Part shown: positions 5,966 to 29,361 of the stretch, in pieces
Position numbering within the stretch: position 1 is the first letter of the stretch
Layout of the letters: each line of letters starts with the position of its first letter
Assembly (NCBI RefSeq): GCF_024223415.1
Contig: NZ_CP100502.1
Length of the DNA stretch: 64,000 nucleotides
DNA from: Escherichia coli
GTDB lineage: Bacteria > Pseudomonadota > Gammaproteobacteria > Enterobacterales > Enterobacteriaceae
Reading direction: 5' to 3' (one strand)
Notes under the pieces: generated by a model
What the model saw: only the letters and a program-made list of their open reading frames with translations
Databases searched by the model: none
What the model was told of the DNA's origin: nothing
Position numbers and translations under genes: made by a program

Positions 5966-5968
5966 GTG

Positions 5969-6704: not shown

Positions 6705-7055
6705 TCAACCTGACGGCGGCGAATCACAAGCGTCCGGTTTGACGCTGGTTTCGGTCGCAGTGCTGGCCCGCGCCTGGAAGCGCTGATAGCACTCCAGCCC
6801 GCAGAAATGCTCCACGTACTCGGCCCCTTCCGGCGTGAAGGCGGCATCGAGCGGGATTTCCTTGCAGCACACGCAGCAACTGGTGCTCGGTTCATTGGCG
6901 TTCATGGTGGTGTTCCTCCATTGGTTGACGAAGCCGACGAAGGCCGCCGCCGGCATCGGCCTGGCGAACAGGAAACCCTGCACCGTGTCGCAACCCGCCT
7001 GCCGCAACCACGCAAGGCAGTCGGGTGTTTCCACACCCTCGGCTACCACCTCCAT
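6705..7055 (-). CDS. tnpM: TnpM (urf2M) of Tn21, start codon abutting integron IRi
   Basis: 116-aa C-terminal part of listed ORF beginning [21 protein letters not shown]; start lies directly against IRi at 7056. Confidence 0.6.
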
Positions 7056-7080
7056 TGTCGTTTTCAGAAGACGGCTGCAC
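7056..7080. repeat. IRi, 25-bp inverted repeat marking the intI1 end of a class 1 integron
   Basis: TGTCGTTTTCAGAAGACGGCTGCAC. Confidence 0.8.
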
Positions 7081-7257
7081 TGAACGTCAGAAGCCGACTG
7101 CACTATAGCAGCGGAGGGGTTGGATCCATCAGGCAACGACGGGCTGCTGCCGGCCATCAGCGGACGCAGGGAGGACTTTCCGCAACCGGCCGTTCGATGC
7201 GGCACCGATGGCCTTCGCGCAGGGGTAGTGAATCCGCCAGGATTGACTTGCGCTGCC

Positions 7258-8271: not shown

Positions 8272-8289
8272 GGCTTGTTATGACTGTTT

Positions 8290-8410
8290 TTTTGTACAGT
8301 CTATGCCTCGGGCATCCAAGCAGCAAGCGCGTTACGCCGTGGGTCGATGTTTGATGTTATGGAGCAGCAACGATGTTACGCAGCAGGGCAGTCGCCCTAA
8401 AACAAAGTTA
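8290..8410. other. attI1 recombination site region
   Basis: Sequence ending CCCTAAAACAAAGTTA at the cassette boundary upstream of dfrA1. Confidence 0.6.
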
Positions 8411-8427
8411 ACCTCTGAGGAAGAATT

Positions 8428-8901
8428 GTGAAACTATCACTAATGGTAGCTATATCGAAGAATGGAGTTATCGGGAATGGCCCTGATATTCCATGGAGTG
8501 CCAAAGGTGAACAGCTCCTGTTTAAAGCTATTACCTATAACCAATGGCTGTTGGTTGGACGCAAGACTTTTGAATCAATGGGAGCATTACCCAACCGAAA
8601 GTATGCGGTCGTAACACGTTCAAGTTTTACATCTGACAATGAGAACGTAGTGATCTTTCCATCAATTAAAGATGCTTTAACCAACCTAAAGAAAATAACG
8701 GATCATGTCATTGTTTCAGGTGGTGGGGAGATATACAAAAGCCTGATCGATCAAGTAGATACACTACATATATCTACAATAGACATCGAGCCGGAAGGTG
8801 ATGTTTACTTTCCTGAAATCCCCAGCAATTTTAGGCCAGTTTTTACCCAAGACTTCGCCTCTAACATAAATTATAGTTACCAAATCTGGCAAAAGGGTTA
8901 A
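8428..8901 (+). CDS. dfrA1: Trimethoprim-resistant dihydrofolate reductase DfrA1 (gene cassette)
   Basis: 157-aa ORF with GTG start, [52 protein letters not shown]. Confidence 0.9.
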
Positions 8902-8993
8902 CAAGTGGCAGCAACGGATTCGCAAACCTGTCACGCCTTTTGTACCAAAAGCCGCGCCAGGTTTGCGATCCGCTGTGCCAGGCGTTAAACATC
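8902..8993. other. attC (59-be) of the dfrA1 cassette
   Basis: Between dfrA1 stop and aadA1 start, ending GTTAAAC core. Confidence 0.5.
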
Positions 8994-9297
8994 ATGAGGG
9001 AAGCGGTGATCGCCGAAGTATCGACTCAACTATCAGAGGTAGTTGGCGTCATCGAGCGCCATCTCGAACCGACGTTGCTGGCCGTACATTTGTACGGCTC
9101 CGCAGTGGATGGCGGCCTGAAGCCACACAGTGATATTGATTTGCTGGTTACGGTGACCGTAAGGCTTGATGAAACAACGCGGCGAGCTTTGATCAACGAC
9201 CTTTTGGAAACTTCGGCTTCCCCTGGAGAGAGCGAGATTCTCCGCGCTGTAGAAGTCACCATTGTTGTGCACGACGACATCATTCCGTGGCGTTATC
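8994..9297 (+). pseudogene. aadA1: aadA1 streptomycin/spectinomycin adenylyltransferase, 3'-truncated (about 101 of 263 codons) by Tn2 IRR
   Basis: Begins MREAVIAEVSTQLSEVVGVIERHLEPTLLAVHLYGSAVDGGLKPHSDIDLL; reading frame runs straight into the Tn2 inverted repeat at 9298. Confidence 0.85.
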
Positions 9298-9335
9298 GGG
9301 GTCTGACGCTCAGTGGAACGAAAACTCACGTTAAG
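9298..9335. repeat. Tn2/Tn3 38-bp terminal inverted repeat (IRR, bla end)
   Basis: GGGGTCTGACGCTCAGTGGAACGAAAACTCACGTTAAG. Confidence 0.9.
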
Positions 9336-9444
9336 GGATTTTGGTCATGAGATTATCAAAAAGGATCTTCACCTAGATCCTTTTAAATTAAAAATGAAGT
9401 TTTAAATCAATCTAAAGTATATATGAGTAAACTTGGTCTGACAG

Positions 9445-10317
<873 letters not shown>

Positions 10318-10487
10318 TCAATATTATTGAAGCATTTACCAGGGTTATTGTCTCATGAGCGGATACATATTTGAATGTATTTAGAAAAATAAACAAATAG
10401 GGGTTCCGCGCACATTTCCCCGAAAAGTGCCACCTGACGTCTAAGAAACCATTATTATCATGACATTAACCTATAAAAATAGGCGTA

Positions 10488-11208
<721 letters not shown>

Positions 11209-14200
11209 ATGCCCGTTGACTTTCTGACCACTGAGCAGACTGAAAGCTATGGCAGATTCACCGGTGAACCGGATGAGCTTCAGCTGGCACGATATTTTCA
11301 CCTTGATGAAGCAGACAAGGAATTTATCGGAAAAAGCAGAGGTGATCACAACCGTCTGGGCATTGCCCTGCAAATTGGATGTGTCCGTTTTCTGGGCACC
11401 TTCCTCACCGATATGAATCATATTCCTTCCGGCGTCCGGCATTTTACCGCCAGACAGCTCGGGATTCGTGATATCACCGTTCTTGCAGAATACGGTCAGA
11501 GGGAAAATACCCGCCGTGAGCATGCAGCGCTGATACGTCAGCACTATCAGTATCGTGAATTTGCCTGGCCCTGGACATTTCGCCTTACCCGTCTTTTATA
11601 TACCCGGAGCTGGATAAGCAACGAACGTCCTGGCCTGCTTTTCGATCTGGCGACAGGGTGGCTTATGCAACATCGTATTATTCTCCCCGGAGCCACTACG
11701 CTGACCCGGTTGATTTCAGAGGTAAGGGAAAAGGCGACGTTGCGCCTGTGGAACAAACTGGCACTGATACCGTCAGCCGAACAGCGTTCACAGCTGGAGA
11801 TGCTGCTGGGGCCAACTGATTGCAGCCGCCTGTCTTTACTGGAATCACTGAAAAAGGGCCCTGTGACCATCAGTGGTCCGGCGTTTAATGAAGCAATTGA
11901 ACGCTGGAAAACTCTGAACGATTTTGGCCTGCATGCTGAAAACCTGAGTACACTCCCGGCTGTGCGCCTGAAAAATCTCGCACGTTATGCTGGTATGACT
12001 TCGGTGTTCAATATTGCCAGGATGTCACCGCAGAAAAGGATGGCGGTTCTGGTTGCCTTTGTCCTTGCATGGGAAACGCTGGCGCTGGATGATGCATTGG
12101 ACGTTCTGGACGCCATGCTGGCCGTTATCATCCGTGACGCCAGAAAGATTGGGCAGAAAAAACGGCTCCGCTCGCTGAAGGATCTGGATAAATCTGCATT
12201 GGCGCTCGCCAGCGCATGTTCGTACCTGCTGAAAGAAGAAACACCGGACGAATCGATTCGTGCTGAGGTGTTCAGCTACATCCCAAGGCAAAAGCTGGCT
12301 GAAATCATCACGCTTGTCCGTGAAATTGCCCGGCCCTCAGACGATAATTTTCATGAAGAAATGGTGGAGCAGTACGGGCGCGTTCGTCGTTTCCTGCCCC
12401 ATCTGCTGAATACCGTTAAATTTTCATCCGCACCTGCCGGGGTTACCACTCTGAATGCCTGTGACTACCTCAGCCGGGAGTTCAGCTCACGGCGGCAGTT
12501 TTTTGACGACGCACCAACGGAAATTATCAGTCGGTCATGGAAACGGCTGGTGATTAACAAGGAAAAACATATCACCCGCAGGGGATACACGCTCTGCTTT
12601 CTCAGTAAACTGCAGGATAGTCTGAGGCGGAGGGATGTCTACGTTACCGGCAGTAACCGGTGGGGAGATCCTCGTGCAAGATTACTACAGGGTGCTGACT
12701 GGCAGGCAAACCGGATTAAGGTTTATCGTTCTTTGGGGCACCCGACAGACCCGCAGGAAGCAATAAAATCTCTGGGTCATCAGCTTGATAGTCGTTACAG
12801 ACAGGTTGCTGCACGTCTTTGCGAAAATGAGGCTGTCGAACTCGATGTTTCTGGCCCGAAGCCCCGGTTGACAATTTCTCCCCTCGCCAGTCTTGATGAG
12901 CCGGACAGTCTGAAACGACTGAGCAAAATGATCAGTGATCTACTCCCTCCGGTGGATTTAACGGAGTTGCTGCTCGAAATTAACGCCCATACCGGATTTG
13001 CTGATGAGTTTTTCCATGCTAGTGAAGCCAGTGCCAGAGTTGATGATCTGCCCGTCAGCATCAGCGCCGTGCTGATGGCTGAAGCCTGCAATATCGGTCT
13101 GGAACCACTGATCAGATCAAATGTTCCTGCACTGACCCGACACCGGCTGAACTGGACAAAAGCGAACTATCTGCGGGCTGAAACTATCACCAGCGCTAAT
13201 GCCAGACTGGTTGATTTTCAGGCAACGCTGCCACTGGCACAGATATGGGGTGGAGGAGAAGTGGCATCTGCAGATGGAATGCGCTTTGTTACGCCAGTCA
13301 GAACAATCAATGCCGGACCGAACCGCAAATACTTTGGTAATAACAGAGGGATCACCTGGTACAACTTTGTGTCCGATCAGTATTCCGGCTTTCATGGCAT
13401 CGTTATACCGGGGACGCTGAGGGACTCTATCTTTGTGCTGGAAGGTCTTCTGGAACAGGAGACCGGGCTGAATCCAACCGAAATTATGACCGATACAGCA
13501 GGTGCCAGCGAACTTGTCTTTGGCCTTTTCTGGCTGCTGGGATACCAGTTTTCTCCACGCCTGGCTGATGCCGGTGCTTCGGTTTTCTGGCGAATGGACC
13601 ATGATGCCGACTATGGCGTGCTGAATGATATTGCCAGAGGGCAATCAGATCCCCGAAAAATAGTCCTTCAGTGGGACGAAATGATCCGGACCGCTGGCTC
13701 CCTGAAGCTGGGCAAAGTACAGGTTTCAGTGCTGGTCCGTTCATTGCTGAAAAGTGAACGTCCTTCCGGACTGACTCAGGCAATCATTGAAGTGGGGCGC
13801 ATCAACAAAACGCTGTATCTGCTTAATTATATTGATGATGAAGATTACCGCCGGCGCATTCTGACCCAGCTTAATCGGGGAGAAAGTCGCCATGCCGTTG
13901 CCAGAGCCATCTGTCACGGTCAAAAAGGTGAGATAAGAAAACGATATACCGACGGTCAGGAAGATCAACTGGGCACACTGGGGCTGGTCACTAACGCCGT
14001 CGTGTTATGGAACACTATTTATATGCAGGCAGCCCTGGATCATCTCCGGGCGCAGGGTGAAACACTGAATGATGAAGATATCGCACGCCTCTCCCCGCTT
14101 TGCCACGGACATATCAATATGCTCGGCCATTATTCCTTCACGCTGGCAGAACTGGTGACCAAAGGACATCTGAGACCATTAAAAGAGGCGTCAGAGGCAG

Positions 14201-14214
14201 AAAACGTTGCTTAA
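11209..14214 (+). CDS. tnpA: Tn2/Tn3 transposase
   Basis: About 1001 aa from MPVDFLTTEQTESYGRFTGEPDEL; stop codon lies inside the terminal repeat. Confidence 0.95.
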   Translation: MPVDFLTTEQTESYGRFTGEPDELQLARYFHLDEADKEFIGKSRGDHNRLGIALQIGCVRFLGTFLTDMNHIPSGVRHFTARQLGIRDITVLAEYGQRENTRREHAALIRQHYQYREFAWPWTFRLTRLLYTRSWISNERPGLLFDLATGWLMQHRIILPGATTLTRLISEVREKATLRLWNKLALIPSAEQRSQLEMLLGPTDCSRLSLLESLKKGPVTISGPAFNEAIERWKTLNDFGLHAENLSTLPAVRLKNLARYAGMTSVFNIARMSPQKRMAVLVAFVLAWETLALDDALDVLDAMLAVIIRDARKIGQKKRLRSLKDLDKSALALASACSYLLKEETPDESIRAEVFSYIPRQKLAEIITLVREIARPSDDNFHEEMVEQYGRVRRFLPHLLNTVKFSSAPAGVTTLNACDYLSREFSSRRQFFDDAPTEIISRSWKRLVINKEKHITRRGYTLCFLSKLQDSLRRRDVYVTGSNRWGDPRARLLQGADWQANRIKVYRSLGHPTDPQEAIKSLGHQLDSRYRQVAARLCENEAVELDVSGPKPRLTISPLASLDEPDSLKRLSKMISDLLPPVDLTELLLEINAHTGFADEFFHASEASARVDDLPVSISAVLMAEACNIGLEPLIRSNVPALTRHRLNWTKANYLRAETITSANARLVDFQATLPLAQIWGGGEVASADGMRFVTPVRTINAGPNRKYFGNNRGITWYNFVSDQYSGFHGIVIPGTLRDSIFVLEGLLEQETGLNPTEIMTDTAGASELVFGLFWLLGYQFSPRLADAGASVFWRMDHDADYGVLNDIARGQSDPRKIVLQWDEMIRTAGSLKLGKVQVSVLVRSLLKSERPSGLTQAIIEVGRINKTLYLLNYIDDEDYRRRILTQLNRGESRHAVARAICHGQKGEIRKRYTDGQEDQLGTLGLVTNAVVLWNTIYMQAALDHLRAQGETLNDEDIARLSPLCHGHINMLGHYSFTLAELVTKGHLRPLKEASEAENVA

Positions 14215-14247
14215 CGTGAGTTTTCGTTCCACTGAGCGTCAGACCCC
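14210..14247. repeat. Tn2/Tn3 38-bp terminal inverted repeat (IRL, tnpA end)
   Basis: CTTAACGTGAGTTTTCGTTCCACTGAGCGTCAGACCCC. Confidence 0.9.
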
Positions 14248-14252
14248 GCATA
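14248..14252. repeat. 5-bp target site duplication GCATA (right copy)
   Basis: Matches 2896-2900. Confidence 0.8.
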
Positions 14253-14660
14253 CAGCAGATTCTCCACCGCCAGACGGCACACGTCATTCAGCAGCCAGCG
14301 GTTGCTTTCGAACACCGGCCACAGCGTGTCCGGCAGGGTGAAGACCAGGTGCACCCAGTCGCAGTCAGGAAGACGATTCAGCTGTGTCGCTATCCACAGG
14401 TCTGTGGCCTTTTTTCCGCAGGACGGGCAGGCACGGCTGCCACATGAGTTAGTGACGTATCTGACGTGGGGGCACTCAGGTTTATCGCAGTTGTATTCCT
14501 TCACACCCAGTATCCGCGTGCCGCAGGCCAGCATTTTTGTGACAGCCTCAACCTCGATATCGCGCAGGCCGCCCGCATCCAGGAAGGATGTCCAGCACTG
14601 GTTGGCTGTGAACAGGCGTTTCAGCGGTCGGGGCTGAAAATCACCACCACTTCGGGTCAT
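14248..14660 (-). pseudogene. tnpA: IS91-family transposase, N-terminal zinc-binding segment of the gene split by the Tn2-bounded insertion
   Basis: CPHVRYVTNSCGSRACPSCGKK zinc-ribbon-like motif; frame joins 2100-2900 across the target duplication. Confidence 0.75.
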
Positions 14661-14913
14661 CCGCCTTCATCTCCGCTTCAGTTTCGTATAAATCAAAACG
14701 ACGGCAGGTATGGCAGAACGTGACGTATTCGTACGGTGAATCCGGGTACATTTTGTGGAAGGTTTCCCAGAAACAGACCGTACAGGAGGGATGACCGGCG
14801 ATAAAGTCTGTAAATACAGACTGATAAGGGTGATTATTGGCCCTGGCGACGGCTTTCAGAACCTCTTTCACCATTCTGGTGTGGACTTTCTGGTGCTCCA
14901 GGTTGTGTGACAT
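14641..14913 (-). CDS. Cys/His-rich ORF upstream of and overlapping the IS91-family tnpA start in another frame (upstream accessory ORF or frameshifted N-terminus)
   Basis: 90-aa ORF with HPSCTVCFWETFHKMY...CHTCRRF; overlaps tnpA by 20 nt in a different frame. Confidence 0.35.
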   Translation of the reverse strand: MSHNLEHQKVHTRMVKEVLKAVARANNHPYQSVFTDFIAGHPSCTVCFWETFHKMYPDSPYEYVTFCHTCRRFDLYETEAEMKADDPKWW

Positions 14914-15127
14914 GGGAACTCATTCTGGATGGTTACTCTGAAAGCTCATATTCTGCCACACCACGATTTGCAGCCGCCAGGCTGCCGTGGTTCATGGTTA
15001 GGTTTTGCGATAGTATATTTACGAGCTGATTAAGGTTTGGCATAGTGTGGTTCGTAAGAAAAATTACTATTATGCCTTGTCCTTAGTCAGCTTTTTTGTT
15101 TTTTGTCGTGTACAGAGAGAAGCCCCC

Positions 15128-15943
15128 ATGAATAAATCGCTCATCATTTTCGGCATCGTCAACATAACCTCGGACAGTTTCTCCGATGGAGGCCGGTATC
15201 TGGCGCCAGACGCAGCCATTGCGCAGGCGCGTAAGCTGATGGCCGAGGGGGCAGATGTGATCGACCTCGGTCCGGCATCCAGCAATCCCGACGCCGCGCC
15301 TGTTTCGTCCGACACAGAAATCGCGCGTATCGCGCCGGTGCTGGACGCGCTCAAGGCAGATGGCATTCCCGTCTCGCTCGACAGTTATCAACCCGCGACG
15401 CAAGCCTATGCCTTGTCGCGTGGTGTGGCCTATCTCAATGATATTCGCGGTTTTCCAGACGCTGCGTTCTATCCGCAATTGGCGAAATCATCTGCCAAAC
15501 TCGTCGTTATGCATTCGGTGCAAGACGGGCAGGCAGATCGGCGCGAGGCACCCGCTGGCGACATCATGGATCACATTGCGGCGTTCTTTGACGCGCGCAT
15601 CGCGGCGCTGACGGGTGCCGGTATCAAACGCAACCGCCTTGTCCTTGATCCCGGCATGGGGTTTTTTCTGGGGGCTGCTCCCGAAACCTCGCTCTCGGTG
15701 CTGGCGCGGTTCGATGAATTGCGGCTGCGCTTCGATTTGCCGGTGCTTCTGTCTGTTTCGCGCAAATCCTTTCTGCGCGCGCTCACAGGCCGTGGTCCGG
15801 GGGATGTCGGGGCCGCGACACTCGCTGCAGAGCTTGCCGCCGCCGCAGGTGGAGCTGACTTCATCCGCACACACGAGCCGCGCCCCTTGCGCGACGGGCT
15901 GGCGGTATTGGCGGCGCTGAAAGAAACCGCAAGAATTCGTTAA
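15128..15943 (+). CDS. sul2: Sulfonamide-resistant dihydropteroate synthase Sul2
   Basis: 271 aa from MNKSLIIFGIVNITSDSFSDGGRYLAPDAAIAQARKLMAEGADVIDLG. Confidence 0.95.
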   Translation: MNKSLIIFGIVNITSDSFSDGGRYLAPDAAIAQARKLMAEGADVIDLGPASSNPDAAPVSSDTEIARIAPVLDALKADGIPVSLDSYQPATQAYALSRGVAYLNDIRGFPDAAFYPQLAKSSAKLVVMHSVQDGQADRREAPAGDIMDHIAAFFDARIAALTGAGIKRNRLVLDPGMGFFLGAAPETSLSVLARFDELRLRFDLPVLLSVSRKSFLRALTGRGPGDVGAATLAAELAAAAGGADFIRTHEPRPLRDGLAVLAALKETARIR

Positions 15944-16029
15944 CTGCACATTCGGGATATTTCTCTATATTCGCGGTTCAGCAGGCATGTCCCCTTTGAG
16001 GGCGACCCGACGACAGGATAATCGACCTT

Positions 16030-16275
16030 ATGGTGCGCAAATATTTCGGCACAGACGGTATTCGTGGCAAAGCCAACGAAGGCGCGATGACGGCGGAAAC
16101 CGCCTTGCGCGTCGGCATGGCGGCTGGCCGTGTCTTTCGTCGCGGTGACCACCGCCATCGTGTCGTGATCGGCAAGGATACGCGCCTGTCGGGCTATATG
16201 CTTGAACCCGCGCTCACAGCCGGTTTCACCTCGATGGGCATGGACGTATTCCTTTTTGGCCCGCTGCCGACAACG
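16030..16275 (+). pseudogene. glmM: Truncated phosphoglucosamine mutase fragment, the usual sul2-associated relic
   Basis: [36 protein letters not shown]... then loss of similarity. Confidence 0.8.
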
Positions 16276-16507
16276 TATAGGAAGAATAAACGCCCTTTTC
16301 ACCCAAGTCCAACAGCTTTGGACCGCAGTTGACTCTTTCGACACCCCTGCGATGCAACCCAATCCGGCTGACGGGGAGCCAGCAACGCTGAAAATTTACC
16401 CTCCTCTTTCCCACTAGCGGCTCCTTTTCCGACAACCAGCACGGCGGATCCCTGCCGCGGCGCTGTGAACGCAGCATTTTGATTGGTATCGTTGGCCTTC
16501 AGGCTCG

Positions 16508-17644
16508 TCAGTCAAACAGACCCAGGAGCAGCTCAGCCGGTGGCGCCCGGCTTTCGGGTAACGCCCTGGTCCCGCTGGTTTCGGCTTTGTGCTTCAGGTG
16601 ATCAAGGATCTGCTTGATCACTATAGGGTCTTCAATGCAGGCGATGACTTTCATGGCGCCGCCGCAGCCGCTGCAGGTCTCGATGTCGATATTGAAAACA
16701 CGCTTGAGCCGTTGCGCCCATGTCATCGACGCTCGCCGTTGTGCTGGTGTTGCCGGTTCATCAGCCACCCTGACCTTGTTGCCCCTGCCCCGTTTTGCCG
16801 GCGTGACCAACGCCCGGTGCCGACTGTTGGGTGCGAACACCCCGTGGAAGCGGGTTAGGTTGACTCTGGGCTTCGGTACCAGGGCGGCCAGCCTTGCAAT
16901 GAAATCCAATGGTTCGAAAATGACGTGCGTGGTGCCGTCCCGGTACGGCGTCTTGAGCTGGTAGCGCACGTTGCCGCCTCGTGTTAACGACAGCCGCTTC
17001 TCGGATACCGCCGGGCGGCTGATGTACCGGCACAGCCGTTCGAGCTTCTTGCGTTCATCGGCCCTGGCCGCCACGCCGGCGTGCAGGCTGGACCCGGCTA
17101 CCTTGCCAATCCCGTCACCGAACGGATCACCACTGGTCGGCAGAGTTTGCAAAGTGAACACCTTTCGCCCCGCCTGTGAACCGACAGCGATACGGTAAGT
17201 GATCGAGTGCCCCAGCAGGGGTGTCATCGGGTCGTCATCCACCGCATCCGAGGCCAGATAGCTGTTTTCGACATCCCGTTCCAGCAGGCCTTGCCGTTCC
17301 AGATAGCGACCCACCCGGTGGGCGATGGTGTGCGTCAGCTGGGTGAGCTCTGGGGTGGTCGGCGCCTTGACCCAGCGGAAACGCGCTGAGCCGTGGGATT
17401 GCTCGACATACACACCGTCGAGAAACAGCATGTGGAAGTGAACATTCAGATTGAGCGCCGATCCAAAACGCTGGATCAGGGTGACCGCGCCCGTCTTGGC
17501 CACTTGGTGGGTATGGCCCGCTTTCTTGACCAGGTGCGTGGCAATGACGCGGTAAACGATGCCCAGCACCCACCCCATGATCTCGGGCCGGCTGGCAAAC
17601 AGGAAACGCAGCTGAAACGGGAAGCTCAACACCCACTGACGCAT
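16508..17644 (-). CDS. IS91-family ISCR2-like transposase, probably lacking the N-terminal zinc-binding region
   Basis: 378-aa ORF with HFH (HUH) and YxxxY motifs and ISCR-type C-terminus IDIETCSGCGGAMKVIACIEDPIVIKQILDHL; adjacent to sul2 and truncated glmM. Confidence 0.7.
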   Translation of the reverse strand: MRQWVLSFPFQLRFLFASRPEIMGWVLGIVYRVIATHLVKKAGHTHQVAKTGAVTLIQRFGSALNLNVHFHMLFLDGVYVEQSHGSARFRWVKAPTTPELTQLTHTIAHRVGRYLERQGLLERDVENSYLASDAVDDDPMTPLLGHSITYRIAVGSQAGRKVFTLQTLPTSGDPFGDGIGKVAGSSLHAGVAARADERKKLERLCRYISRPAVSEKRLSLTRGGNVRYQLKTPYRDGTTHVIFEPLDFIARLAALVPKPRVNLTRFHGVFAPNSRHRALVTPAKRGRGNKVRVADEPATPAQRRASMTWAQRLKRVFNIDIETCSGCGGAMKVIACIEDPIVIKQILDHLKHKAETSGTRALPESRAPPAELLLGLFD

Positions 17645-18010: not shown

Positions 18011-18280
18011 ATGGCACAGGTTAATATGAGTTTAAGAATCGACGCTGAACTGAAGGATGCTTTTATGGCCGCTGCAAAAAGCATGGACCGTAATGGCTCT
18101 CAGTTAATTCGGGATTTTATGCGCCAGACCGTTGAACGGCAGCATAATACCTGGTTCCGTGACCAGGTTGAGGCAGGACGTCAGCAACTCGAGCGCGGCG
18201 ATGTGCTTCCCCATGACATGGTCGAATCTTCCGCTGCTGCATGGCGGGATGAAATGAGCAGGAAGGTTGCCGGTAAATGA
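18011..18280 (+). CDS. Antitoxin, ParD/RelB-like (YacA-like of IncI plasmids)
   Basis: 89-aa ORF with ribbon-helix-helix-like N-terminus; 4-nt overlap with downstream toxin gene. Confidence 0.7.
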   Translation: MAQVNMSLRIDAELKDAFMAAAKSMDRNGSQLIRDFMRQTVERQHNTWFRDQVEAGRQQLERGDVLPHDMVESSAAAWRDEMSRKVAGK

Positions 18281-18558
18281 TGGAGATATTCTGGACCATG
18301 CTGGCCAGCCAGGACAGGAAGCGCATTCGTAAGTACATTGCGGAGCAGAACCTGATGGCCGCCATTGAACTGGACGAACGGATTGGTTATTCAGCCAGCA
18401 GCCTGGCCGGGCAGCCGTATAAAGGCCGCAACGGTCGTGTGGAAGGTACCCGGGAACTGGTTATTCACCCGCATTTTGTTCTGGTTTATGAGGTCGACAG
18501 CCAGTGGGGAAAAGTGTATATCCTGCGCGTGTTGCATACTGCACAGAAGTGGCCATAG
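18277..18558 (+). CDS. Toxin, RelE/ParE superfamily (YacB-like)
   Basis: 93-aa ORF translationally coupled to the antitoxin; typical RelE/ParE size and composition. Confidence 0.7.
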   Translation: MMEIFWTMLASQDRKRIRKYIAEQNLMAAIELDERIGYSASSLAGQPYKGRNGRVEGTRELVIHPHFVLVYEVDSQWGKVYILRVLHTAQKWP

Positions 18559-18597
18559 AGGGGCTGTCCGGATATAAGGAAAGGAGATGCAATAACC

Positions 18598-19446
18598 ATG
18601 AATAATGATGAGCTGGCCACCAGACGTGCGCAGGCGATTGCCGAAGACAGGTGTTTCTCGAAAGGACGTTTGCGCGATGAATTCAGAATGAAACCAGCCC
18701 CCGGTGCTGAGCCGGTTAAGTGGTATAAAAATAGTTATGGTGGCAGGTTCGCTGTATACCGAATTGCAGACTGTGTTCCGATGCGTGAGAAACGCCCTCT
18801 GACGAGTAAACAACAGCTGGCTGGCCAGCGGCTTTCCGTTTTATCCCGACTAAACAGCACCAGTGGCCGGATGGCACGGCAGGCATATGACTGGCTGAGT
18901 CTGGCACCACTCTTTCTGGATACTGAAACGACAGGACTGGATAATACCGCGGAAGCCCTGGAAATCGGCCTGACCGATGCGGCCGGTCAGGTGGTATTTG
19001 AAACCAGGCTGAAGCCCACGGTCGCCATCGGGGCGCAGGCCGCCGCCGTGCATGGTATCAGTGAGCAGGCTCTCTGCGGCGCACCATCATGGACAGATGT
19101 GGCGCGGCAACTGCGTCATGCAATCGGGGACCGACCAGTAATTATCTTTAATGCCCGGTTCGACATCCGCATTCTGAAACAGACTGCTGCCGCACATAGC
19201 GATCCGGCTGACTGGCTGGAAGAACTGACGGTATATTGTGCGATGGAGCTGGCTGCAGGATATTATGGGGCCACCAACCGCTATGGCACGATTTCACTGG
19301 CCTGTGCTGCCAGTCAGGCCGGACTGACCTGGGAAGGGCAGGCACACTCAGCGATCGCCGACGCACGGATGACGGCAGGGGTGGTAAACGCTATTGCTGC
19401 ATATCATCTGGAACTGCTGCAGGAACAGGCACGGCTGAAAATCTGA
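18598..19446 (+). CDS. DEDD-family 3'-5' exonuclease (DnaQ-like) with N-terminal extension
   Basis: Exo I motif FLDTETTGL; 282 aa; strong SD AAGGAGA. Confidence 0.75.
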   Translation: MNNDELATRRAQAIAEDRCFSKGRLRDEFRMKPAPGAEPVKWYKNSYGGRFAVYRIADCVPMREKRPLTSKQQLAGQRLSVLSRLNSTSGRMARQAYDWLSLAPLFLDTETTGLDNTAEALEIGLTDAAGQVVFETRLKPTVAIGAQAAAVHGISEQALCGAPSWTDVARQLRHAIGDRPVIIFNARFDIRILKQTAAAHSDPADWLEELTVYCAMELAAGYYGATNRYGTISLACAASQAGLTWEGQAHSAIADARMTAGVVNAIAAYHLELLQEQARLKI

Positions 19447-19562: not shown

Positions 19563-20036
19563 GTGAGAGACAAAACCAGGGAGGCCATGCGGCTTTTTTT
19601 AGGCGGCAGGTGCTACACGGCTGAAAAACTTGAAAAGGATTATCTGGCTGAAGTGGCTAATTACAGTAACGACCGCTGGGAAGCACCGCAACGTGCCTCA
19701 CGCCTGGCTGCCAGCGTAAAGCGTTACAAGACATCAGAAATGCTGCGCTTTATTTTTGCTACCATTGCCTACGATCCCGATCCAGATTTAACCCCGCTAA
19801 CTGTGAGACGTTTGTGCAAGGCATTGTTCGGCAGAACCGGAAGCCAGTGGCTGGTTGTTGAAGTTTTTGGGGAGAAGGGGCGTCAGCACCGCAGCGCGGA
19901 CAGCAATCCGGAGATGGTGGAAAAAATGGCTGCCAGATATCGTCATGCCGCCGAACTACACTGGTCCGCAACGCTGGCAGAAATTGAACGGGTAAAGCGG
20001 CTTTATCAGACGAAAATTAAGAAATCCAAAAAATAA
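19563..20036 (+). CDS. Hypothetical protein bracketed by two copies of a long palindrome
   Basis: 157-aa ORF (GTG, or ATG at 19587); no recognisable domain. Confidence 0.5.
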   Translation: MRDKTREAMRLFLGGRCYTAEKLEKDYLAEVANYSNDRWEAPQRASRLAASVKRYKTSEMLRFIFATIAYDPDPDLTPLTVRRLCKALFGRTGSQWLVVEVFGEKGRQHRSADSNPEMVEKMAARYRHAAELHWSATLAEIERVKRLYQTKIKKSKK

Positions 20037-20068
20037 GTGGGTTGACTGCCATTGTTGTTCTTCTCCTT

Positions 20069-20108
20069 CATCATTAATGTTAATGTATGCATACATTAGC
20101 ATTAATGA
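20069..20108. repeat. Near-perfect palindrome (copy 2) downstream of the 19563-20036 ORF
   Basis: TCATTAATGTTAATGTATGCATACATTAGCATTAATGATG. Confidence 0.8.
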
Positions 20109-20170
20109 TGGTGCGTTAAAGTATCACTGGTATAATCTGGTAAAGAACATATTGAGAATGAGAACTTATC

Positions 20171-20404
20171 ATGTCGTCACGCAACTCTGTACATGATTTT
20201 ATAATGCTGCTCCCGGCGCTGCTGTTGGTTGGGTGGTTAGTTTTGGTGATAATTCTCATGTTTAGGGATGATAAATGTGACAAAACTTACCGTGAAGGTT
20301 CGTTTCCCGAATTTATTTGTCTCCATTCTGATCGCTCGTCACTTCGAGAAACCGATTCTGAGAGACTCATTGTCAAATATACAGAAATAAAATCACAAAA
20401 ATAG
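20171..20404 (+). CDS. Small predicted membrane protein (uncertain)
   Basis: 77-aa ORF with hydrophobic N-terminal helix; AT-rich; weak SD. Confidence 0.3.
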   Translation: MSSRNSVHDFIMLLPALLLVGWLVLVIILMFRDDKCDKTYREGSFPEFICLHSDRSSLRETDSERLIVKYTEIKSQK

Positions 20405-20778
20405 GTAAAACCAATAATACTATAGCTAAAAAATAGTTACTTTTCTGTATCACCCTGTCTCTCTCTGCTTTTTCATGGCTACTGTCATATTTATGTCTGT
20501 TGCGCGGTTTTGTTACTTTTTCATGACCGAACCCGAAATTTTGCGCGTCAATAAGAGACGTTGTGTAAACTCAGTCCTTTTATCTGGCAGGTTAACCCCT
20601 ATCAATCTTAGGATGAAACCACGCCATCCTCTGTTTGCCTGGTTATTAATTTCATAAAGACGATTGTTTTCCTCTCGTAGTTTTGTCCACTCTAAACAAA
20701 GTGTTATATCATCCAGTTCTGTGATGTGTTTCACTTTTCCATTGACAGTTACAGTGTTTATTCCATTTCCTGTGAGCA

Positions 20779-21312
20779 TCATCTTATGCCTTTTTTATCT
20801 TCATTTGGGACCGTGCTTTTCTTCGGAGTATCACTATTCGTTAACTGCTGTTTATCAATAAAATTCCTGATGTTATCAAGTGCTTCCTTTGTTTTTAGAA
20901 TGCGCTTGATATCCATTTCATCCCGCCCGGTCATTCTTTTTCCGGACAAAAGACGCTCAAGAAGCTCCTGTTTCGCATCAGGAGAATCTTTGGCGAGATC
21001 CATCAGGTTAAGCAAATCTTCACGATCGAGAGGAAAGAAGTATTTTACAAAATACTTGAAAAGCGAAAGAAAGTAGTATGCTGTCCATGCAATACAGAAA
21101 CCGATTCTGAGAAACTCATTGTCAACTATACAGAAATACAGGTATACAATCAGGAGAATAGGTAAAATCCATAATACTATAGCTAAAAAAATATATACGG
21201 GGATCAGGCGTCTGTATGCCCGTTCATGTTTATTCAGGATGAATAAAATCTTCTCCGCTTCTGAATCACACATAACATTCTCTTCCCATTTTTTCTGATA
21301 CGTAATGTCCAC
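20779..21312 (-). CDS. Predicted two-helix membrane protein
   Basis: 177-aa AT-rich ORF; hydrophobic stretch LIPVYIFLAIVLWILPILLIVYLYFCIV; contains one copy of a roughly 90-bp direct repeat. Confidence 0.5.
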   Translation of the reverse strand: MDITYQKKWEENVMCDSEAEKILFILNKHERAYRRLIPVYIFLAIVLWILPILLIVYLYFCIVDNEFLRIGFCIAWTAYYFLSLFKYFVKYFFPLDREDLLNLMDLAKDSPDAKQELLERLLSGKRMTGRDEMDIKRILKTKEALDNIRNFIDKQQLTNSDTPKKSTVPNEDKKGIR

Positions 21313-21328: not shown

Positions 21329-21931
21329 TTATTGCCCAGAAATATTCTCCTGCTGTGCCTGCGTCCTGAGCCACTTTTGTTCTAATGTCGCCAGTCTGCG
21401 ACCGGCACTCTGTGCTTCAGAGTCTGAGACCTGCCCTTTGGGGTGACCATCCAGGCCATAACGTGGGACGCCGGCGACAGCTGTCCGCTGCAGATATACG
21501 CGGCGGGATGTGATGCAGGACACTGCACAGAGCCATTCGTCCATGGTCAGTTCTGTCTCCGGGTGTTCTGCCAGAAATGCCGAAATATCATTGCTTATGC
21601 CAATTTTCAGGGGAATAAATCCACCACCTTCAGCACGAAGATGAGGAAACAGGGCCTTTATTTTTTCCACGCACTCGTGAGTATACTCACGGGTCCAGTG
21701 GGAGGGACGTGGAAAACGGTGTCTTTTCTTTTTCTTCTTCCTGGCTGGCGCTTCGGGGATATGTGTTTCGACGGCAGATGAATTTATTCCGGCGGGGGCT
21801 GATTCTGCCGTCTGTTCAGTAAATACAGGTGCGATAATATCTGTTTTTTCGGATAAGGACGGTGGCGAAAAAGTACGACGTTTTTTCACCACAATGACGG
21901 GAGTTTTCCTTTCTTCCTGATTTTTTCCCAT
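21329..21931 (-). CDS. FinO/ProQ-domain RNA-binding protein (FopA-like)
   Basis: 200-aa ORF; basic N-terminus; C-terminal region resembling the FinO fold (KIKALFPHLRAEGGGFIPLKIGISNDISAFLAEHPE). Confidence 0.55.
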   Translation of the reverse strand: MGKNQEERKTPVIVVKKRRTFSPPSLSEKTDIIAPVFTEQTAESAPAGINSSAVETHIPEAPARKKKKKRHRFPRPSHWTREYTHECVEKIKALFPHLRAEGGGFIPLKIGISNDISAFLAEHPETELTMDEWLCAVSCITSRRVYLQRTAVAGVPRYGLDGHPKGQVSDSEAQSAGRRLATLEQKWLRTQAQQENISGQ

Positions 21932-22287
21932 AAATACCTCGGCTGGCTGGTTTTACTCTTTAATAATATCACAATCCATAAATTAGTAAATTTCCCATCA
22001 GGTGATTTTTCATGGCTAATAAGTCCATTCTCTGAATATTTATACTCGAGGTAGTTACAGTTATGGCGTGACAGTCGAATTGATATTCTACTGAACCCTG
22101 ACAGAAACATGGTTGATATATTCTATCACTTTAATGTTGTCATGATATAAATAAAAACAATTCATTTGAAAGGATATCAGAAGAAGATATCGGGGCGCAC
22201 AGTTCATCTCTGCCTTTGTTTCATGGGGGGTTCTTTGTATATTTTACTTACTGTTTAAGCATGTACATAAGGAGTGCTTTCATTATG

Positions 22288-23631
22288 CCAATGATACTTG
22301 TAAAGAAGAATCCCCGGGGCAAAGTGATTCGGGAGCTTAGCAGTGAGGAAGAGACTGCAGTAAAGACGGTCTGTGGACTGAAAAGGCCAGCAACCATGGC
22401 ACAACATAACCTGGCCAATGATCTTCTCCGGGAAATGCGTGAGTATGATGCATGGTTACAGTGTGACTGTATTCCGGGAGATTCGCCGGCCATGAATTTT
22501 GCTGCTCTTAAAAACAATACGGGTACTCTTTATCTGTCCAGTTTTAATCATGAGCATGCACCTGAATGCCCCATGTATCGTCAGTTATCCGGAAATGAAG
22601 AGGAAACATCCTTCGGAGCAAGCCGGCATCCCGTTAGCACCCGTATAAATTACAGAAACTTTTTACCACCTGATGACAGTAATTCTGTTATCAGACTGCA
22701 GGCCCGCTCTGCTTACCATAATGGTGAGCGCTCCTCCGTTCGCAAGAAACGTCCGCGCCTTGGCCGTTTACTCCTGTCGCTTATTGAAGATGCAGGGCTG
22801 AATAAACTGGATTCCCTGGCTAATCCCCGTATCCGGACTAATTATCGTGAGTGTCTTGATGCCATACGGCAGGTTACACTACAGCAGGAGTATATTCGGG
22901 GAAGAGCCTTATCTGAAATTATCCATTTCCGGCCAGGAATGTCTGAAAGGTCTCAGGAGCGGTTAATGGAAACGCTGGAGAATTCAGAACGACACTGGCC
23001 TGCCAGAAGAAAGCATATGTTCTTTCAGATTTTTATGGCGCAGCACATCTGTCGTGATGCTGTGGAAATTCACTGGGCGAACGGTAATATTCAGGTCATC
23101 AGACCTGTGCGGGGGATCAGTATTAATGGTGAAGCGCAGGGCGGAATACGTCCCCCTTACTGGGTTATTCTTGCTTTTTGCCGGAGTGCCGATGGCAGAA
23201 TCATCTGCAGTGAAGGGTATGCTCATGCTCTTTATCAACTGACATGTCCGGTGCCTGTGGACAGCAAACTGGAACGAAACACGCTCACTGCTCTTCTGAA
23301 TGTGGCCAGCTGGCTTAAAAGAAAGCCAGGTACGCCGGAATTAAGTCTGGAAAGGCCCCTGTTTGATACAGAAGTTTATGTTAATGGTGAAAAGAAATAT
23401 GTACTGCCGGATTTCATTGTCACAGCAAGGGCTCCTGACGGAAAGACGGCCAGAGTGGTCATCGAAACGATGGGATATGAAGACAGTGATTACTGCGCGA
23501 GAAAATCCAGGCAGCATACCGGCATGAAGCAGATTGGTGTTCTGCATACCGATCCACCGAAATGGCTGGATAACGATCATCCCCCTTTTAAGAAACATAT
23601 GTACGGTGTTTTTATGCATCTCAGGTACTGA
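22288..23631 (+). CDS. Hypothetical 447-aa protein, Cys/His-rich N-terminus and possible PD-(D/E)xK-like C-terminal motif
   Basis: Start MPMILVKKNPRG with SD; CDCIPG...HEHAPEC; C-terminal LPDFIV...VVIETMGYEDSDYCARK. Confidence 0.6.
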   Translation, partial: PMILVKKNPRGKVIRELSSEEETAVKTVCGLKRPATMAQHNLANDLLREMREYDAWLQCDCIPGDSPAMNFAALKNNTGTLYLSSFNHEHAPECPMYRQLSGNEEETSFGASRHPVSTRINYRNFLPPDDSNSVIRLQARSAYHNGERSSVRKKRPRLGRLLLSLIEDAGLNKLDSLANPRIRTNYRECLDAIRQVTLQQEYIRGRALSEIIHFRPGMSERSQERLMETLENSERHWPARRKHMFFQIFMAQHICRDAVEIHWANGNIQVIRPVRGISINGEAQGGIRPPYWVILAFCRSADGRIICSEGYAHALYQLTCPVPVDSKLERNTLTALLNVASWLKRKPGTPELSLERPLFDTEVYVNGEKKYVLPDFIVTARAPDGKTARVVIETMGYEDSDYCARKSRQHTGMKQIGVLHTDPPKWLDNDHPPFKKHMYGVFMHLRY

Positions 23632-23807
23632 GATATTTTGTGGCTCAGTTCTGTAACTTTTCCCGTAACATTGTCTGTTGTTACGGGAAAGTCCGGTTTT
23701 TGTATTGCACCAGAGAATACCCAGACTGTGATGCTGCCACAGTGTCAGCAGGCTTTCTGAACGGTATAACACCACTTCATGTTAATGATAATTACTATCA
23801 TTAAATC

Positions 23808-26641: not shown

Positions 26642-27232
26642 TTACGGAGCGGCACTTTCATTTATCTGTACGCGAACCTCCATTCCTGCATCGTGACAGG
26701 CCTGCAGCCACTGCGCCACTTCCAGCGGATCGCCCTCCCGGCGTACCACCCTGCCTTCTTTATTCCATAACTGCAGACAGGTGCTGCCGTCTAGACGCAC
26801 CACAAAATCCCCACGGCAGGCCTGATACGTTATGCCGTTCAGTTGCACCGCCAGATCAGTGGCAGAAGTGCCATCTGCGGGCAGACCTGCTGCCGGGACC
26901 AGCGGCAGTACGACGACTTCTGCCGCACGCTGTTCTGCCCGGAGGCGGTCCTGTTCTGCCAGCAGCAGAGGCTGTGCCACGGCCCGGCCGGCGTCCGTCA
27001 GCTCTACTGCCAGCTGCAGGTTCGGAGCGCGCAGGGTACGCAGCCAGCCGGCATCCTCCAGACGACGGCAGGAGGCGCGCAGGTTTGGCCCGTAGACCGG
27101 GGCTTCCCCGCTTCGCTCCAGCACCCGTTCTATGTCCCGCGTCAGCACGGGTCCTGGCCGTTTTTCATCAAGGGCAGCCAGCACAATCAGCACTCTCCGC
27201 TGCAGTGGCGACGGTCGGCGGCTCTGGGTCAT
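26642..27232 (-). CDS. Hypothetical protein with winged-helix-like N-terminus; markedly GC-rich gene
   Basis: 196-aa ORF; noticeably more GC-rich than flanking DNA; start overlaps stop of upstream ORF. Confidence 0.55.
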   Translation of the reverse strand: MTQSRRPSPLQRRVLIVLAALDEKRPGPVLTRDIERVLERSGEAPVYGPNLRASCRRLEDAGWLRTLRAPNLQLAVELTDAGRAVAQPLLLAEQDRLRAEQRAAEVVVLPLVPAAGLPADGTSATDLAVQLNGITYQACRGDFVVRLDGSTCLQLWNKEGRVVRREGDPLEVAQWLQACHDAGMEVRVQINESAAP

Positions 27233-27489
27233 TACCTGTCATCCTCCGGCCAGATGAGGTTTCTGAGGCGCTGAAAGTCGGCGTCAATGAGCTCCTGTCT
27301 CTTTATGGCATTCATTGAGGCATAGCCATTTATGGCCAGTTCATGCCAGAAGATCAGCACGGCTCCGGCTTTGGCTGACTCGCAGAGATAAATCGCGCCC
27401 TGGCTGTCCAGATTGCATTCCCGGATGCGTCGTTCCGCAAACCGGGTCAGTTGTTCATAGCTGAGTGAAAACGTCATTTCCTGATCCAT
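27232..27489 (-). CDS. Hypothetical small protein, first gene of a two-gene operon
   Basis: 85-aa ORF translationally coupled to the downstream gene. Confidence 0.5.
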   Translation of the reverse strand: MDQEMTFSLSYEQLTRFAERRIRECNLDSQGAIYLCESAKAGAVLIFWHELAINGYASMNAIKRQELIDADFQRLRNLIWPEDDR

Positions 27490-27839: not shown

Positions 27840-28841
27840 ATGGCCGATCCATTCAATCTGCAGACCGATGTGGTCAGGCAGCATACGGTTCCCCGTTTTT
27901 TACTGAAGCATTTCAGTACGCCGGGAAAGGGTAAGCGGCAGCGCTTATACGCCTTTGACAAGGCTGCCGGGCGCGCCTATGCCACCACGCCGGATGACGC
28001 GACCGTCCGCAACACGTTCTACAACCTCGATAATCACCCGGACCGTCTGAGTCTTGAACCACTGCTGGGGATTTACGAGCACCACGCGGCACCGGTAATT
28101 GCAGCCCTGCTGGCGCACAGGGATATTCGCAGGCTGACAGATGATGAACGCTACAGGCTGGCCGTGTTTGTTGCCGTGCAGCGCGCACGAACCTTCGGTG
28201 AACTGGAGCGTATCTCAGGCATGATTTCGGTGCTTACCGATAAGATGGAGGCCATCGGCTCGACTAAAGAGCAGGCCATGGAAACCCTGGGCCTGTCGTC
28301 CGGGGGCGATACCAAGGATATTTTTCTGCGGCAGCTCGTCCAGCAGGTGTCACATATTGATCTCCTGCTGAAAAAGGACTGGTACCTTCTGGAAACCAGG
28401 CCAGAACGTCCGTTTTACGTATCAGACAATCCCGTAGTGCTTAAGAACAGCAATGACTTCGGTCCGTACGGTAATCTTGGTCTGGCCGTTCGCGGGATAC
28501 AGATTTACCTCCCCCTGTCATCGACGCTGATGCTGGCCATGTATTGCCCCTCCATCCGTGAACAGATGGTTCGTCAAAAGCAGCATCTTCAACATCTGCT
28601 CGCCAGGGCGCCGCATCTTATCCCCCGTCACATTCGGCCTTTTGAAAGACTGGAACATATCCGGAGGTATACGGACTATCTTCTTATGCCGCTTACCCCG
28701 GAGCATGTCACGCATTACAATTCCCTGCAGGTGGAGTTCGCGGAGCAGTACGTGTTCTGCGGTGAAAAGGATTTCTCTCTGGTTGAGAGAATGCTGGCCG
28801 ATAGTGAACGCTACCGGACTGGCCCGCGGTTTACGTTTTAG
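27840..28841 (+). CDS. DUF4238-family protein, candidate single-gene anti-phage defence
   Basis: N-terminal HTVPRFLLKHF matching the DUF4238 signature; 333 aa from MADPFNLQT with SD GGGAG. Confidence 0.65.
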   Translation: MADPFNLQTDVVRQHTVPRFLLKHFSTPGKGKRQRLYAFDKAAGRAYATTPDDATVRNTFYNLDNHPDRLSLEPLLGIYEHHAAPVIAALLAHRDIRRLTDDERYRLAVFVAVQRARTFGELERISGMISVLTDKMEAIGSTKEQAMETLGLSSGGDTKDIFLRQLVQQVSHIDLLLKKDWYLLETRPERPFYVSDNPVVLKNSNDFGPYGNLGLAVRGIQIYLPLSSTLMLAMYCPSIREQMVRQKQHLQHLLARAPHLIPRHIRPFERLEHIRRYTDYLLMPLTPEHVTHYNSLQVEFAEQYVFCGEKDFSLVERMLADSERYRTGPRFTF

Positions 28842-29016: not shown

Positions 29017-29361
29017 TTACTTTAGCAGAGTAAATCTTCGGCAAGTGGCGGTAACCACTTTACCGATACCCCAGAGTAGTCCGCGCTTTACTGGCGTGAC
29101 CCATAGTGCCGAAACCGCAAATTTCGACACTATAAAGGCCTTCAGCCAGGGCACTACAAACCAGACCACCGCAGCACAGAGACCCACATAGGCCATAAGA
29201 AGCAAAATACAGAGACAGGCGCTCCAGTATTGCTTCTGGCAAATATGGTCCCTGGTTCCGATAACCAGGCGTTTAACGGTGGAGAAAATCGTCCAAATAA
29301 AATGGATTTCAGTCTGGAATGGGAATAGAACCGTTCCCTCGGTGTCTAACAAGTTTTTCAT
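29017..29361 (-). CDS. Predicted small membrane protein
   Basis: 114-aa ORF with SD GGGAGG 7 nt upstream; two hydrophobic helices. Confidence 0.4.
   Translation of the reverse strand: MKNLLDTEGTVLFPFQTEIHFIWTIFSTVKRLVIGTRDHICQKQYWSACLCILLLMAYVGLCAAVVWFVVPWLKAFIVSKFAVSALWVTPVKRGLLWGIGKVVTATCRRFTLLK

Follow-up and report, generated by a model that had tools for sequence, protein, structure and literature searches.

YagA of IncI1 and related plasmids: a conserved protein family with a probable Bax1-type PD-(D/E)xK nuclease domain and a predicted Cys/His metal site

Two described protein families bear closely on the gene considered here. DUF1173 proteins, of approximately 400 amino acids (aa), combine an N-terminal CysXCysXnHisX3-5Cys motif with a C-terminal PD-(D/E)xK-related domain, which is closest to the domains of DUF790 and DUF1064 and was said to be without an active-site signature (Laganeckas et al. 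2011; PMC3045609). DUF790 corresponds to Bax1, the archaeal XPB-associated endonuclease of nucleotide excision repair, whose nuclease domain binds metal through the acidic residues E275, D305 and E318; the substitution D305A (D301A in SsBax1) abolishes the activity of that domain (DuPrez et al.; PMC7293015). Here we describe yagA, a gene carried on a 64,000-nucleotide stretch of Escherichia coli contig NZ_CP100502.1 (assembly GCF_024223415.1; hereafter, the window), which represents an IncI1/I-gamma conjugative plasmid of the ColIb-P9 type. The C-terminal part of YagA very probably has a PD-(D/E)xK fold of the Bax1 type, and its N-terminal part carries a predicted metal site.

The gene ("protein YagA", WP_001132032.1 in RefSeq) is a single long open reading frame (ORF) at 22285-23631 on the + strand, an assignment on which the ORF call, the RefSeq annotation and the 100% identity of the protein with ColIb-P9 YagA agree. 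Its product comprises 448 aa (about 51 kDa) and is followed by a TGA stop codon. A sequence-only reading of the window had placed the gene at 22288-23631 with 447 aa; the frame and the stop at 23631 stand, and the start was set three nucleotides too late. The ATG at 22285 serves as start codon and is preceded at a distance of 10 nt by a Shine-Dalgarno sequence, AAGGAG, read from the sequence at 22269-22274 (+); position 22288 is the next codon, CCA (Pro), and the start Met is shared by the aligned homologues. The surrounding 1.8 kb is 100% identical to E. coli plasmid pLH09-a-B and 99.9% identical to ColIb-P9 (NC_002122), and it matches 1365 plasmids in PLSDB, 1295 of which are conjugative.

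The same reading had been unable to place the protein in a known family. It does have one: the precomputed Pfam family PF27227 (Endonuc-like_C) is assigned to the 99%-identical cluster P0001 and to almost all full-length homologues, and a Foldseek search against AFDB50 yields full-length matches (E 1e-22 to 1e-26) to proteins annotated as "DUF1173 domain-containing" from Sphingomonadales, Rhizobiales, Burkholderia, Legionella, Xanthomonas, Vibrio and Aeromonas, together with UniProt P04481, "Uncharacterized protein in cib 5' region". A word-indexed search recovered 115 relatives, down to 33% identity and all from Enterobacterales, and a profile search of 1.84 billion representatives gave 771 clusters at E<=1e-3, the majority being full-length proteins with 420-470 aa. 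For one homologue of 53% identity, UniRef already uses the cluster name "DUF1173 family protein". The Pfam DUF1173 hidden Markov model (HMM), by comparison, gave no match to YagA at E<=10, and among 30 diverse relatives it matched one at E<=1e-3 and two at E<=0.1. Because the DUF1173 architecture is shared but the score falls below the threshold of the DUF1173 HMM, YagA is a sister branch of DUF1173 within the same superfamily, one in which the putative catalytic residues are conserved. The E. coli K-12 chromosomal YagA, a CP4-6 prophage protein, is an unrelated gene that has only the name in common. A further "YagA", family 67 of Samuel et al. 2024, is GIY-YIG-like and lies a median of 9.5 ORFs from oriT, whereas over 20 kb separate yagA of the window from psiB and ardA; family 67 is apparently another protein that bears this name.

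The AlphaFold2 model, built from a 29-sequence alignment, has a mean predicted local distance difference test score (pLDDT) of 81.7 and a predicted template modelling score (pTM) of 0.76. An N-terminal alpha/beta module (aa 1-100) is followed by a basic linker of low confidence (aa ~100-155, ending in RSSVRKKRPR; pLDDT <50 for 133-153; 22687-22749 (+) for aa ~135-155). The linker precedes a conserved helix, L-x-R-L-L-x-x-L-I-E-D-A-G-L-N (aa 158-172; modelled as a helix at 158-169), in which L159 and L163 are at least 85% conserved, and further helices follow. A central beta-rich domain, possibly an OB-like barrel, spans aa ~245-320 (23017-23244, +), and the putative nuclease domain spans aa ~325-425 (23257-23559, +). 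The topology of the C-terminal domain (328-423), alpha-beta-(hairpin)-beta-beta-alpha-beta, contains the alpha-beta-beta-beta-alpha-beta core of the restriction-endonuclease-like fold. The sequence-only reading had suspected a nuclease-like C-terminus and a metal-binding cluster in the N-terminal third; in the model the C-terminus adopts a nuclease-type fold, and the Cys/His site lies within the N-terminal alpha/beta module.

Which residues of these domains are conserved? We aligned 131 full-length representatives of the family, sharing no more than 50% mutual identity, and found that the motifs are conserved far beyond chance. In the N-terminal module, whose motifs in YagA are C60-D-C62 and H89-E-H91-A-P-E-C95, C60 and C62 are each present in 130 of the 131 representatives, H91 in all of them and C95 in 128. 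The residues form a 3Cys+1His set, C60-x-C62-x28-H91-x3-C95 (pattern W-L-x-C-x-C ... H-x3-C), encoded within 22462-22569 (+; codons for C60 at 22462, C62 at 22468, H91 at 22555 and C95 at 22567) and near-invariant in three alignments. The metal-binding cluster proposed from the letters alone therefore holds, with the refinement that the conserved His is H91 and not H89. From this conservation, C60, C62, H91 and C95 are predicted to constitute a genuine 3Cys+1His metal site; such a ligand set fits Zn, and also a 2Fe-2S cluster of the mitoNEET type.

In the C-terminal domain, S327 and E330 are invariant (131/131), and R331 (125/131), P375 (128/131), D376 (129/131), F377 (125/131), E394, G397 and K407 (129/131 each) and Y403 (128/131) are nearly so. 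They lie in part within the motifs L374-P-D376-F-I-V and V391-V-I-E394-T-M-G-Y-E-D-S-D-Y403-C-A-R-K407. The putative nuclease signature is a variant one, with E330, P375-D376 and E394 conserved in 98-100% of the sequences, with M396 rather than Lys at the +2 position and K407 on the following helix. The PD...E..D..K-like pattern of the sequence-only reading is recovered in D376, E394, Y403 and K407; the intervening acidic residues D400 and D402 are variable. Position 357 is Lys in 130 of the 131 representatives, within a K-P-L-F-D motif whose P358 is equally conserved (130/131), and it is Arg (codon at 23353-23355) in YagA of the IncI/K/B/O plasmids, where this replacement is fixed in the clade. 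The remaining key codons, likewise on the + strand, are those for E330 (23272-23274), D376 (23410-23412), E394 (23464-23466), Y403 (23491-23493) and K407 (23503-23505).

The arrangement of these residues leads to Bax1. Full-length YagA gave nothing significant against the PDB by phmmer or hmmsearch, and against NCBIfam it gave only a weak match to the BPTD_3080 restriction endonuclease family. When a profile of the isolated C-terminal domain was compared with all PDB sequences at E<=10, only Bax1 chains were returned: those of A. fulgidus (6P66_B, 3.8e-4), P. furiosus (8GY8, 4.6e-4) and S. tokodaii (6P4F/6P4W/6P4O, 1.8-3.1e-3). YagA and Bax1 share the motif PDF...(V/I)(Y/V)(I/V)E(I/T)xG...Y..(R/K)K, which reads c-R-P-D-F...v-I-E-T-M-G...Y-l-e-R-K in the YagA-family profile and f-I-P-D-F...v-Y-I-E-I-A-G...Y-L-R-K-K in AfBax1. 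Residue counting along the alignment pairs YagA D376 with AfBax1 D305, and E394 with E318. The imperfect "ExK" of YagA is explained by Bax1, which likewise has its Lys on the following helix and none at +2, so that YagA seems to have the Bax1 variant of the site. Family models point the same way at lower scores: the Pfam DUF790 model matches YagA below threshold at aa 369-415 (independent E-value 0.4 for the full-length protein and 0.033 for the isolated domain), and it matches 23 of 29 relatives at E<=0.1, 5 of 30 at E<=1e-3 and, with the isolated domain, 10 of 35 at E<=1e-3. The NCBIfam model "endonuclease Bax1" (NF053694) matches relative P0143 with E 1.7e-3, at 17 bits against a cutoff of 500, and YagA itself does not reach the curated threshold of the DUF790/Bax1 family HMMs. 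Nor does YagA have a partner XPB helicase gene, the N-terminal XPB-binding domain or the Cas2-like domain of Bax1.

What might such a protein do? Taken as a whole, our reading of yagA is a tentative one, held with somewhat less than even confidence: that it encodes an accessory nuclease of the structure-specific type that handles plasmid DNA. Its parts differ in strength. Judging from the conserved residues, YagA is probably catalytically active, and would be a Mg2+/Mn2+-dependent endonuclease whose substrate DNA would be selected by the N-terminal half (metal module, basic linker and barrel) and cut by the C-terminal domain. By analogy, the substrate may be a DNA structure, such as a single-strand/double-strand junction, flap, fork or bubble, and not a sequence, although specificity of this kind is a possibility to which we give slightly less than an even chance. 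We favour structure over sequence as the target because the closest sequence relative, Bax1, is junction-specific, because Hjc and VRR-Nuc, which are among the fold matches, are also structure-specific, and because the gene has no methyltransferase or helicase partner and is carried without evident toxicity. Finally, YagA might process or repair plasmid DNA intermediates in circumstances that standard culture does not provide, for instance when DNA is damaged, when the plasmid becomes established in a new host or when replicons conflict. Such a role in plasmid DNA processing is the least certain part and, by itself, rather unlikely; it is favoured here because the gene is co-inherited with the rep, par, res and umuDC genes of low-copy conjugative plasmids over large sequence distances.

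This co-inheritance can be followed across several plasmid groups. In IncI1 plasmids the order is repZ ... yacAB - DnaQ-like exonuclease - ... - fopA <> yagA - cib - imm - DUF4238 - ibfA ... - resD - parA - parM/stbB - impCAB - leading region. In those IncK2/Z and IncB/O plasmids that lack a colicin gene, the parAB operon comes straight after fopA-yagA, with repA 3.5 kb away. RepE-type plasmids of Enterobacter, Citrobacter, Kosakonia, Cronobacter and Pectobacterium carry homologues of 30-57% identity in the block resD - parA/parG - YagA - repE - umuDC - parM/stbB. In Serratia MOBF plasmids, ssb - parA - parB - two small ORFs - YagA lie on one strand with tight spacing, and the parA-parB-orf-orf-YagA segment (locus L012, 4197-8323) looks like an operon; a methylase, klcA, a large ParB-like gene and psiBA lie 3' of the homologue. 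The Sphingomonas homologue is located between repA/SLT and a toprim - strawberry-notch - ParB set. Clustering of all ORFs in 29 loci showed ParA (14 loci) and a Rep initiator (12 loci) as recurrent neighbours at up to 3 kb from YagA, a ResD-like integrase at up to 6 kb (15 loci) and UmuC at up to 10 kb (12 loci); no gene adjoined YagA in all of the loci. A search for related loci with an alignment of closer homologues returned 13 loci, all from Enterobacterales. Among 5426 complete E. coli genomes, yagA is present in 904, with 1000 copies on plasmids and 22 on chromosomes (the chromosomal copy listed is a partial fragment), and it is absent from 50,697 phage records and has no PHROG match. One copy whose product is 100% identical to YagA lies on a Collinsella sp. 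contig of a metagenome-assembled genome (L024, JAIJJM010000080.1, 4595-5938); this is almost certainly a binning artefact derived from an enterobacterial plasmid fragment.

A number of observations weigh against our reading. First, at the level of the active site, the position of the canonical (D/E)xK Lys is occupied by Met396, the Arg that replaces Lys357 in IncI/K YagA could lower activity, and the equivalence of YagA E330 with AfBax1 E275 is inferred from fold position and is unaligned; a search for Bax1 homologues with a 45-aa fragment, intended for a profile-profile comparison of these two residues, found none. Second, the gene is dispensable. Of the 904 E. coli genomes with yagA, 731 have at least 80% of the gene in one piece, whereas about 19% have it truncated or interrupted. 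Published transposon-directed insertion-site sequencing (TraDIS) of the I-complex plasmid pMS7163B, where intact yagA is gene 070 (c5488..6834), gave Log2MPM values of 12.9 for yagA, 7.6 for parA, 7.8 for parB and 1.0 for repA (PMC10286972, S1 Table A), and after surface mating a log2 fold change (Log2FC) of +2.04 for yagA, within the range of many neutral genes (PMC10286972). Because insertions were tolerated and were not depleted after mating, a role in core maintenance or transfer is excluded. Third, plasmids also accumulate defence and toxin-antitoxin cargo in the vicinity of rep and par. Fourth, literature searches (yagA, DUF1173, PF06666, PF27227) returned no functional study of the family, either biochemical or genetic.

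The candidate of a core maintenance gene is thus ruled out by the pMS7163B TraDIS data, in which maintenance required the replicon and parAB only (PMC10286972), and YagA is an accessory function outside the replication, partition and transfer machinery. Selection on the gene is nonetheless still visible from sequence comparison: the three IncI/K alleles differ by 10-11 aa, all at positions 34-208 and 436 and none in 209-435, and their pairwise dN/dS is 0.17-0.48, on 8-20 substitutions. Known interruptions of yagA involve IS2, IS3, IS481, ISEcp1-blaCTX-M-55 and an ampicillin-resistance cassette.

Dispensability for maintenance and mating is also a property of defence genes, and the alternative that survives best, which we judge unlikely but by no means negligible, is that YagA is a single-gene nuclease directed against mobile genetic elements, serving defence or inter-replicon competition. 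As with Shedu or Type IV restriction enzymes, recognition of foreign DNA (for example, the ends of invading phages or plasmids, modified bases, or transfer and replication intermediates) by the metal module and barrel of the N-terminal half would unleash the C-terminal nuclease. The layout of the protein suits this explanation, with its variable N-terminal half, its C-terminal PD-(D/E)xK nuclease with an intact set of putative catalytic residues and its stand-alone occurrence free of a methyltransferase. So does part of the context. In IncI1 plasmids yagA lies at one end of the variable segment between repZ and resD, where colicin Ib, ibfA (exclusion of T5 and BF23), DUF4238 and, in R64, pifA are also encoded, and the neighbours of homologues include PARIS-like AAA_15+DUF4435, TIR+DUF4238, AAA_13, RES/HEPN, Ppl and DUF6361 plus helicase genes. 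Several results nevertheless argue against it. No PADLOC-DB v2 HMM matches YagA or any of 10 diverse relatives. Defence genes usually use prophages and chromosomal islands, whereas yagA does not occur in phages or PHROGs and is nearly absent from E. coli chromosomes. The rep/par/res synteny is kept over 30-57% protein divergence, which points to inheritance with the backbone and not to mobile cargo. Bax1, the nearest relative by sequence, acts in DNA repair, and the phage-exclusion phenotype of ColIb-P9 maps to another gene. A more specific form of this explanation, which we consider distinctly improbable, is that YagA and DUF1173-like proteins are plasmid- and integrative-and-conjugative-element-specific, metal-cluster-guided nucleases acting in replicon conflict, an uncatalogued single-gene system that would cut replication or transfer intermediates of competing plasmids or invading DNA. 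If this were true, such a system would be present in about one in six sequenced E. coli strains.

An even less probable explanation is that YagA is an inactive DNA-binding protein with a nuclease fold, functioning as a regulator, a par/rep scaffold or an anti-nuclease decoy. Laganeckas et al. suggested inactivity for DUF1173, which they described as being without the PD-(D/E)xK signature (PMC3045609), and the Met at the canonical Lys position, the change of the near-invariant Lys357 to Arg in the IncI/K clade, the lack of toxicity despite the lack of a methyltransferase and the nearby partition genes would all be compatible with such a function. However, the 98-100% conservation of the three acidic residues and K407 among the 131 representatives is hard to explain without catalysis, and the same Lys-less E-(I/T)-x-G motif, with a Lys on the next helix, is found in active Bax1, which requires the aligned Asp. 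A classical Type II restriction-modification endonuclease was rejected as a candidate, as the neighbours are fopA and cib and the nearest methylase is approximately 16 kb away, in the leading region; across the 29 loci there is no conserved methyltransferase neighbour.

The possibility that yagA is a regulator, release or accessory factor of the colicin Ib module, or the abortive-infection gene of ColIb-P9, is very remote: it follows from position (279 bp 5' of cib, same strand) and from the historical name "uncharacterized protein in cib 5' region" (UniProt P04481), whereas a strong terminator separates the two genes, cib has its own promoter, homologues occur in colicin-free RepE plasmids, and the intact yagA of colicin-free IncK2/Z and IncB/O plasmids effectively refutes a colicin function. 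The identity with abi/ibfA is ruled out, because ibfA (NC_002122, 13401-13745) corresponds, with an offset of +15616, to positions 29017-29361 of the window, on the opposite strand.

Upstream of yagA, fopA (21329-21931, -) is transcribed divergently and separated from it by a 353-bp spacer (21932-22284). Downstream, an intrinsic terminator (23658-23701, +) with a perfect 12-bp stem (23659-23670/23679-23690), an 8-nt loop and a T-run precedes the colicin Ib gene, which starts at 23910 on the same strand; this hairpin was the sole result of a repeat search, and an Rfam scan of 16-34 kb gave no match. Because of the spacer and the terminator, yagA is a stand-alone gene, as the sequence-only reading had proposed; the promoter of its own that it also proposed is left unconfirmed, since a consensus scan of the upstream region found no sigma-70 promoter on the + strand. 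An extended -10 element, TGaTATAAA at 22143-22151 (+), is a candidate picked out by eye. The fopA gene (yafB) encodes a RNA-binding protein of the ProQ/FinO type (PMC7491321). As the divergent fopA-yagA pair is kept in IncI1, IncK2/Z and IncB/O plasmids, shared regulation of the two genes is a possibility. Separately, fopA and yagA have the same Log2FC in the TraDIS data, about +2.

We also noted several features elsewhere in the window and in related loci. The 114-aa "hypothetical protein" at 29017-29361 (-), unnamed in RefSeq, is the ColIb-P9 ibfA/abi product by coordinate offset; according to published reports, ibfA/abi confers exclusion of phages T5 and BF23. A gene with a DUF4238 domain (27840-28841, +), possibly a defence gene, is located after the immunity gene of colicin Ib and before ibfA, and on a Kosakonia plasmid (locus L007, 1799-2929) a DUF4238 gene adjoins a TIR-domain gene near the YagA homologue. 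A PARIS-like AAA_15 + DUF4435 pair is located 3 kb from another homologue (locus L004, 5201-7232). Between the immunity gene and the DUF4238 gene, two overlapping hypothetical ORFs (196 aa and 85 aa; 26642-27489, -) lie in an island of ~60% GC. The yacA/yacB toxin-antitoxin pair and then the gene for a DnaQ-like 3'-5' exonuclease occupy 18011-19446 (+); with this exonuclease and impCAB/umuDC, the plasmid region contains several accessories of DNA metabolism. A low-GC segment (36-43%) at 20000-21300 has minus-strand ORFs at 20513-20779 and 20779-21273, of which the larger product looks membrane-associated, judging by its sequence. Positions 1-17000 form a resistance island with TnAs1/Tn3 transposases, a class 1 integron (dfrA1, aadA cassette), blaTEM-1 and sul2; it lies 5' of yacAB, where in ColIb-P9 repZ is ~1 kb away.

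The gene annotation (decades old), the family name and the fold class were already public, and the architecture of the sister family was published in 2011. The new elements of this study are the residue-level link to the Bax1 active site, the conservation of that site in the YagA branch, and the recurrent rep-par-res synteny combined with the published TraDIS dispensability. The finding is incremental, and the data imply no unusual mechanism. The interest of YagA is modest and derives mainly from its commonness in resistance plasmids: the IncI/K/B/O plasmids that carry it are major vehicles of blaCTX-M and blaCMY, and yagA itself is a frequent landing site for resistance insertions. A conserved predicted nuclease in so common a backbone represents a gap in plasmid biology. 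Our results also suggest that the 2011 view of DUF1173 as a family without an active site is worth revisiting for the YagA branch.

How, then, does YagA compare with the known systems? Shedu (SduA) and Type IV restriction enzymes combine a sensor and a PD-(D/E)xK nuclease in a single polypeptide and have no methyltransferase. The design logic of YagA is analogous, with a stand-alone gene, an N-terminal sensor-like region and a C-terminal nuclease, but it differs from them in having no PADLOC sequence match, in being restricted to plasmids and in showing backbone synteny instead of a defence-island distribution. With minimal nucleases of the VRR-Nuc, Hjc and restriction-endonuclease-like types, YagA shares the core fold, together with the placement of an acidic residue in helix 1, an Asp at the start of strand 2 and a Glu in strand 3. 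Those enzymes have the canonical ExK, which is absent from YagA, and YagA is in contrast a 448-aa multidomain protein with a beta-hairpin inserted between strands 1 and 2. The uncharacterised proteobacterial proteins of DUF1173 (PF06666) have the same length and architecture as YagA; the 2011 description denied them an active-site signature, but E, D, E and K are conserved in the YagA family. Bax1, finally, has both the nuclease motif and the PD-(D/E)xK fold in common with YagA. Like YagA, it has no Lys at the +2 position and has a Lys on the following helix, and, as an enzyme that cuts single-strand/double-strand junctions, it provides a model for the type of substrate proposed for YagA.

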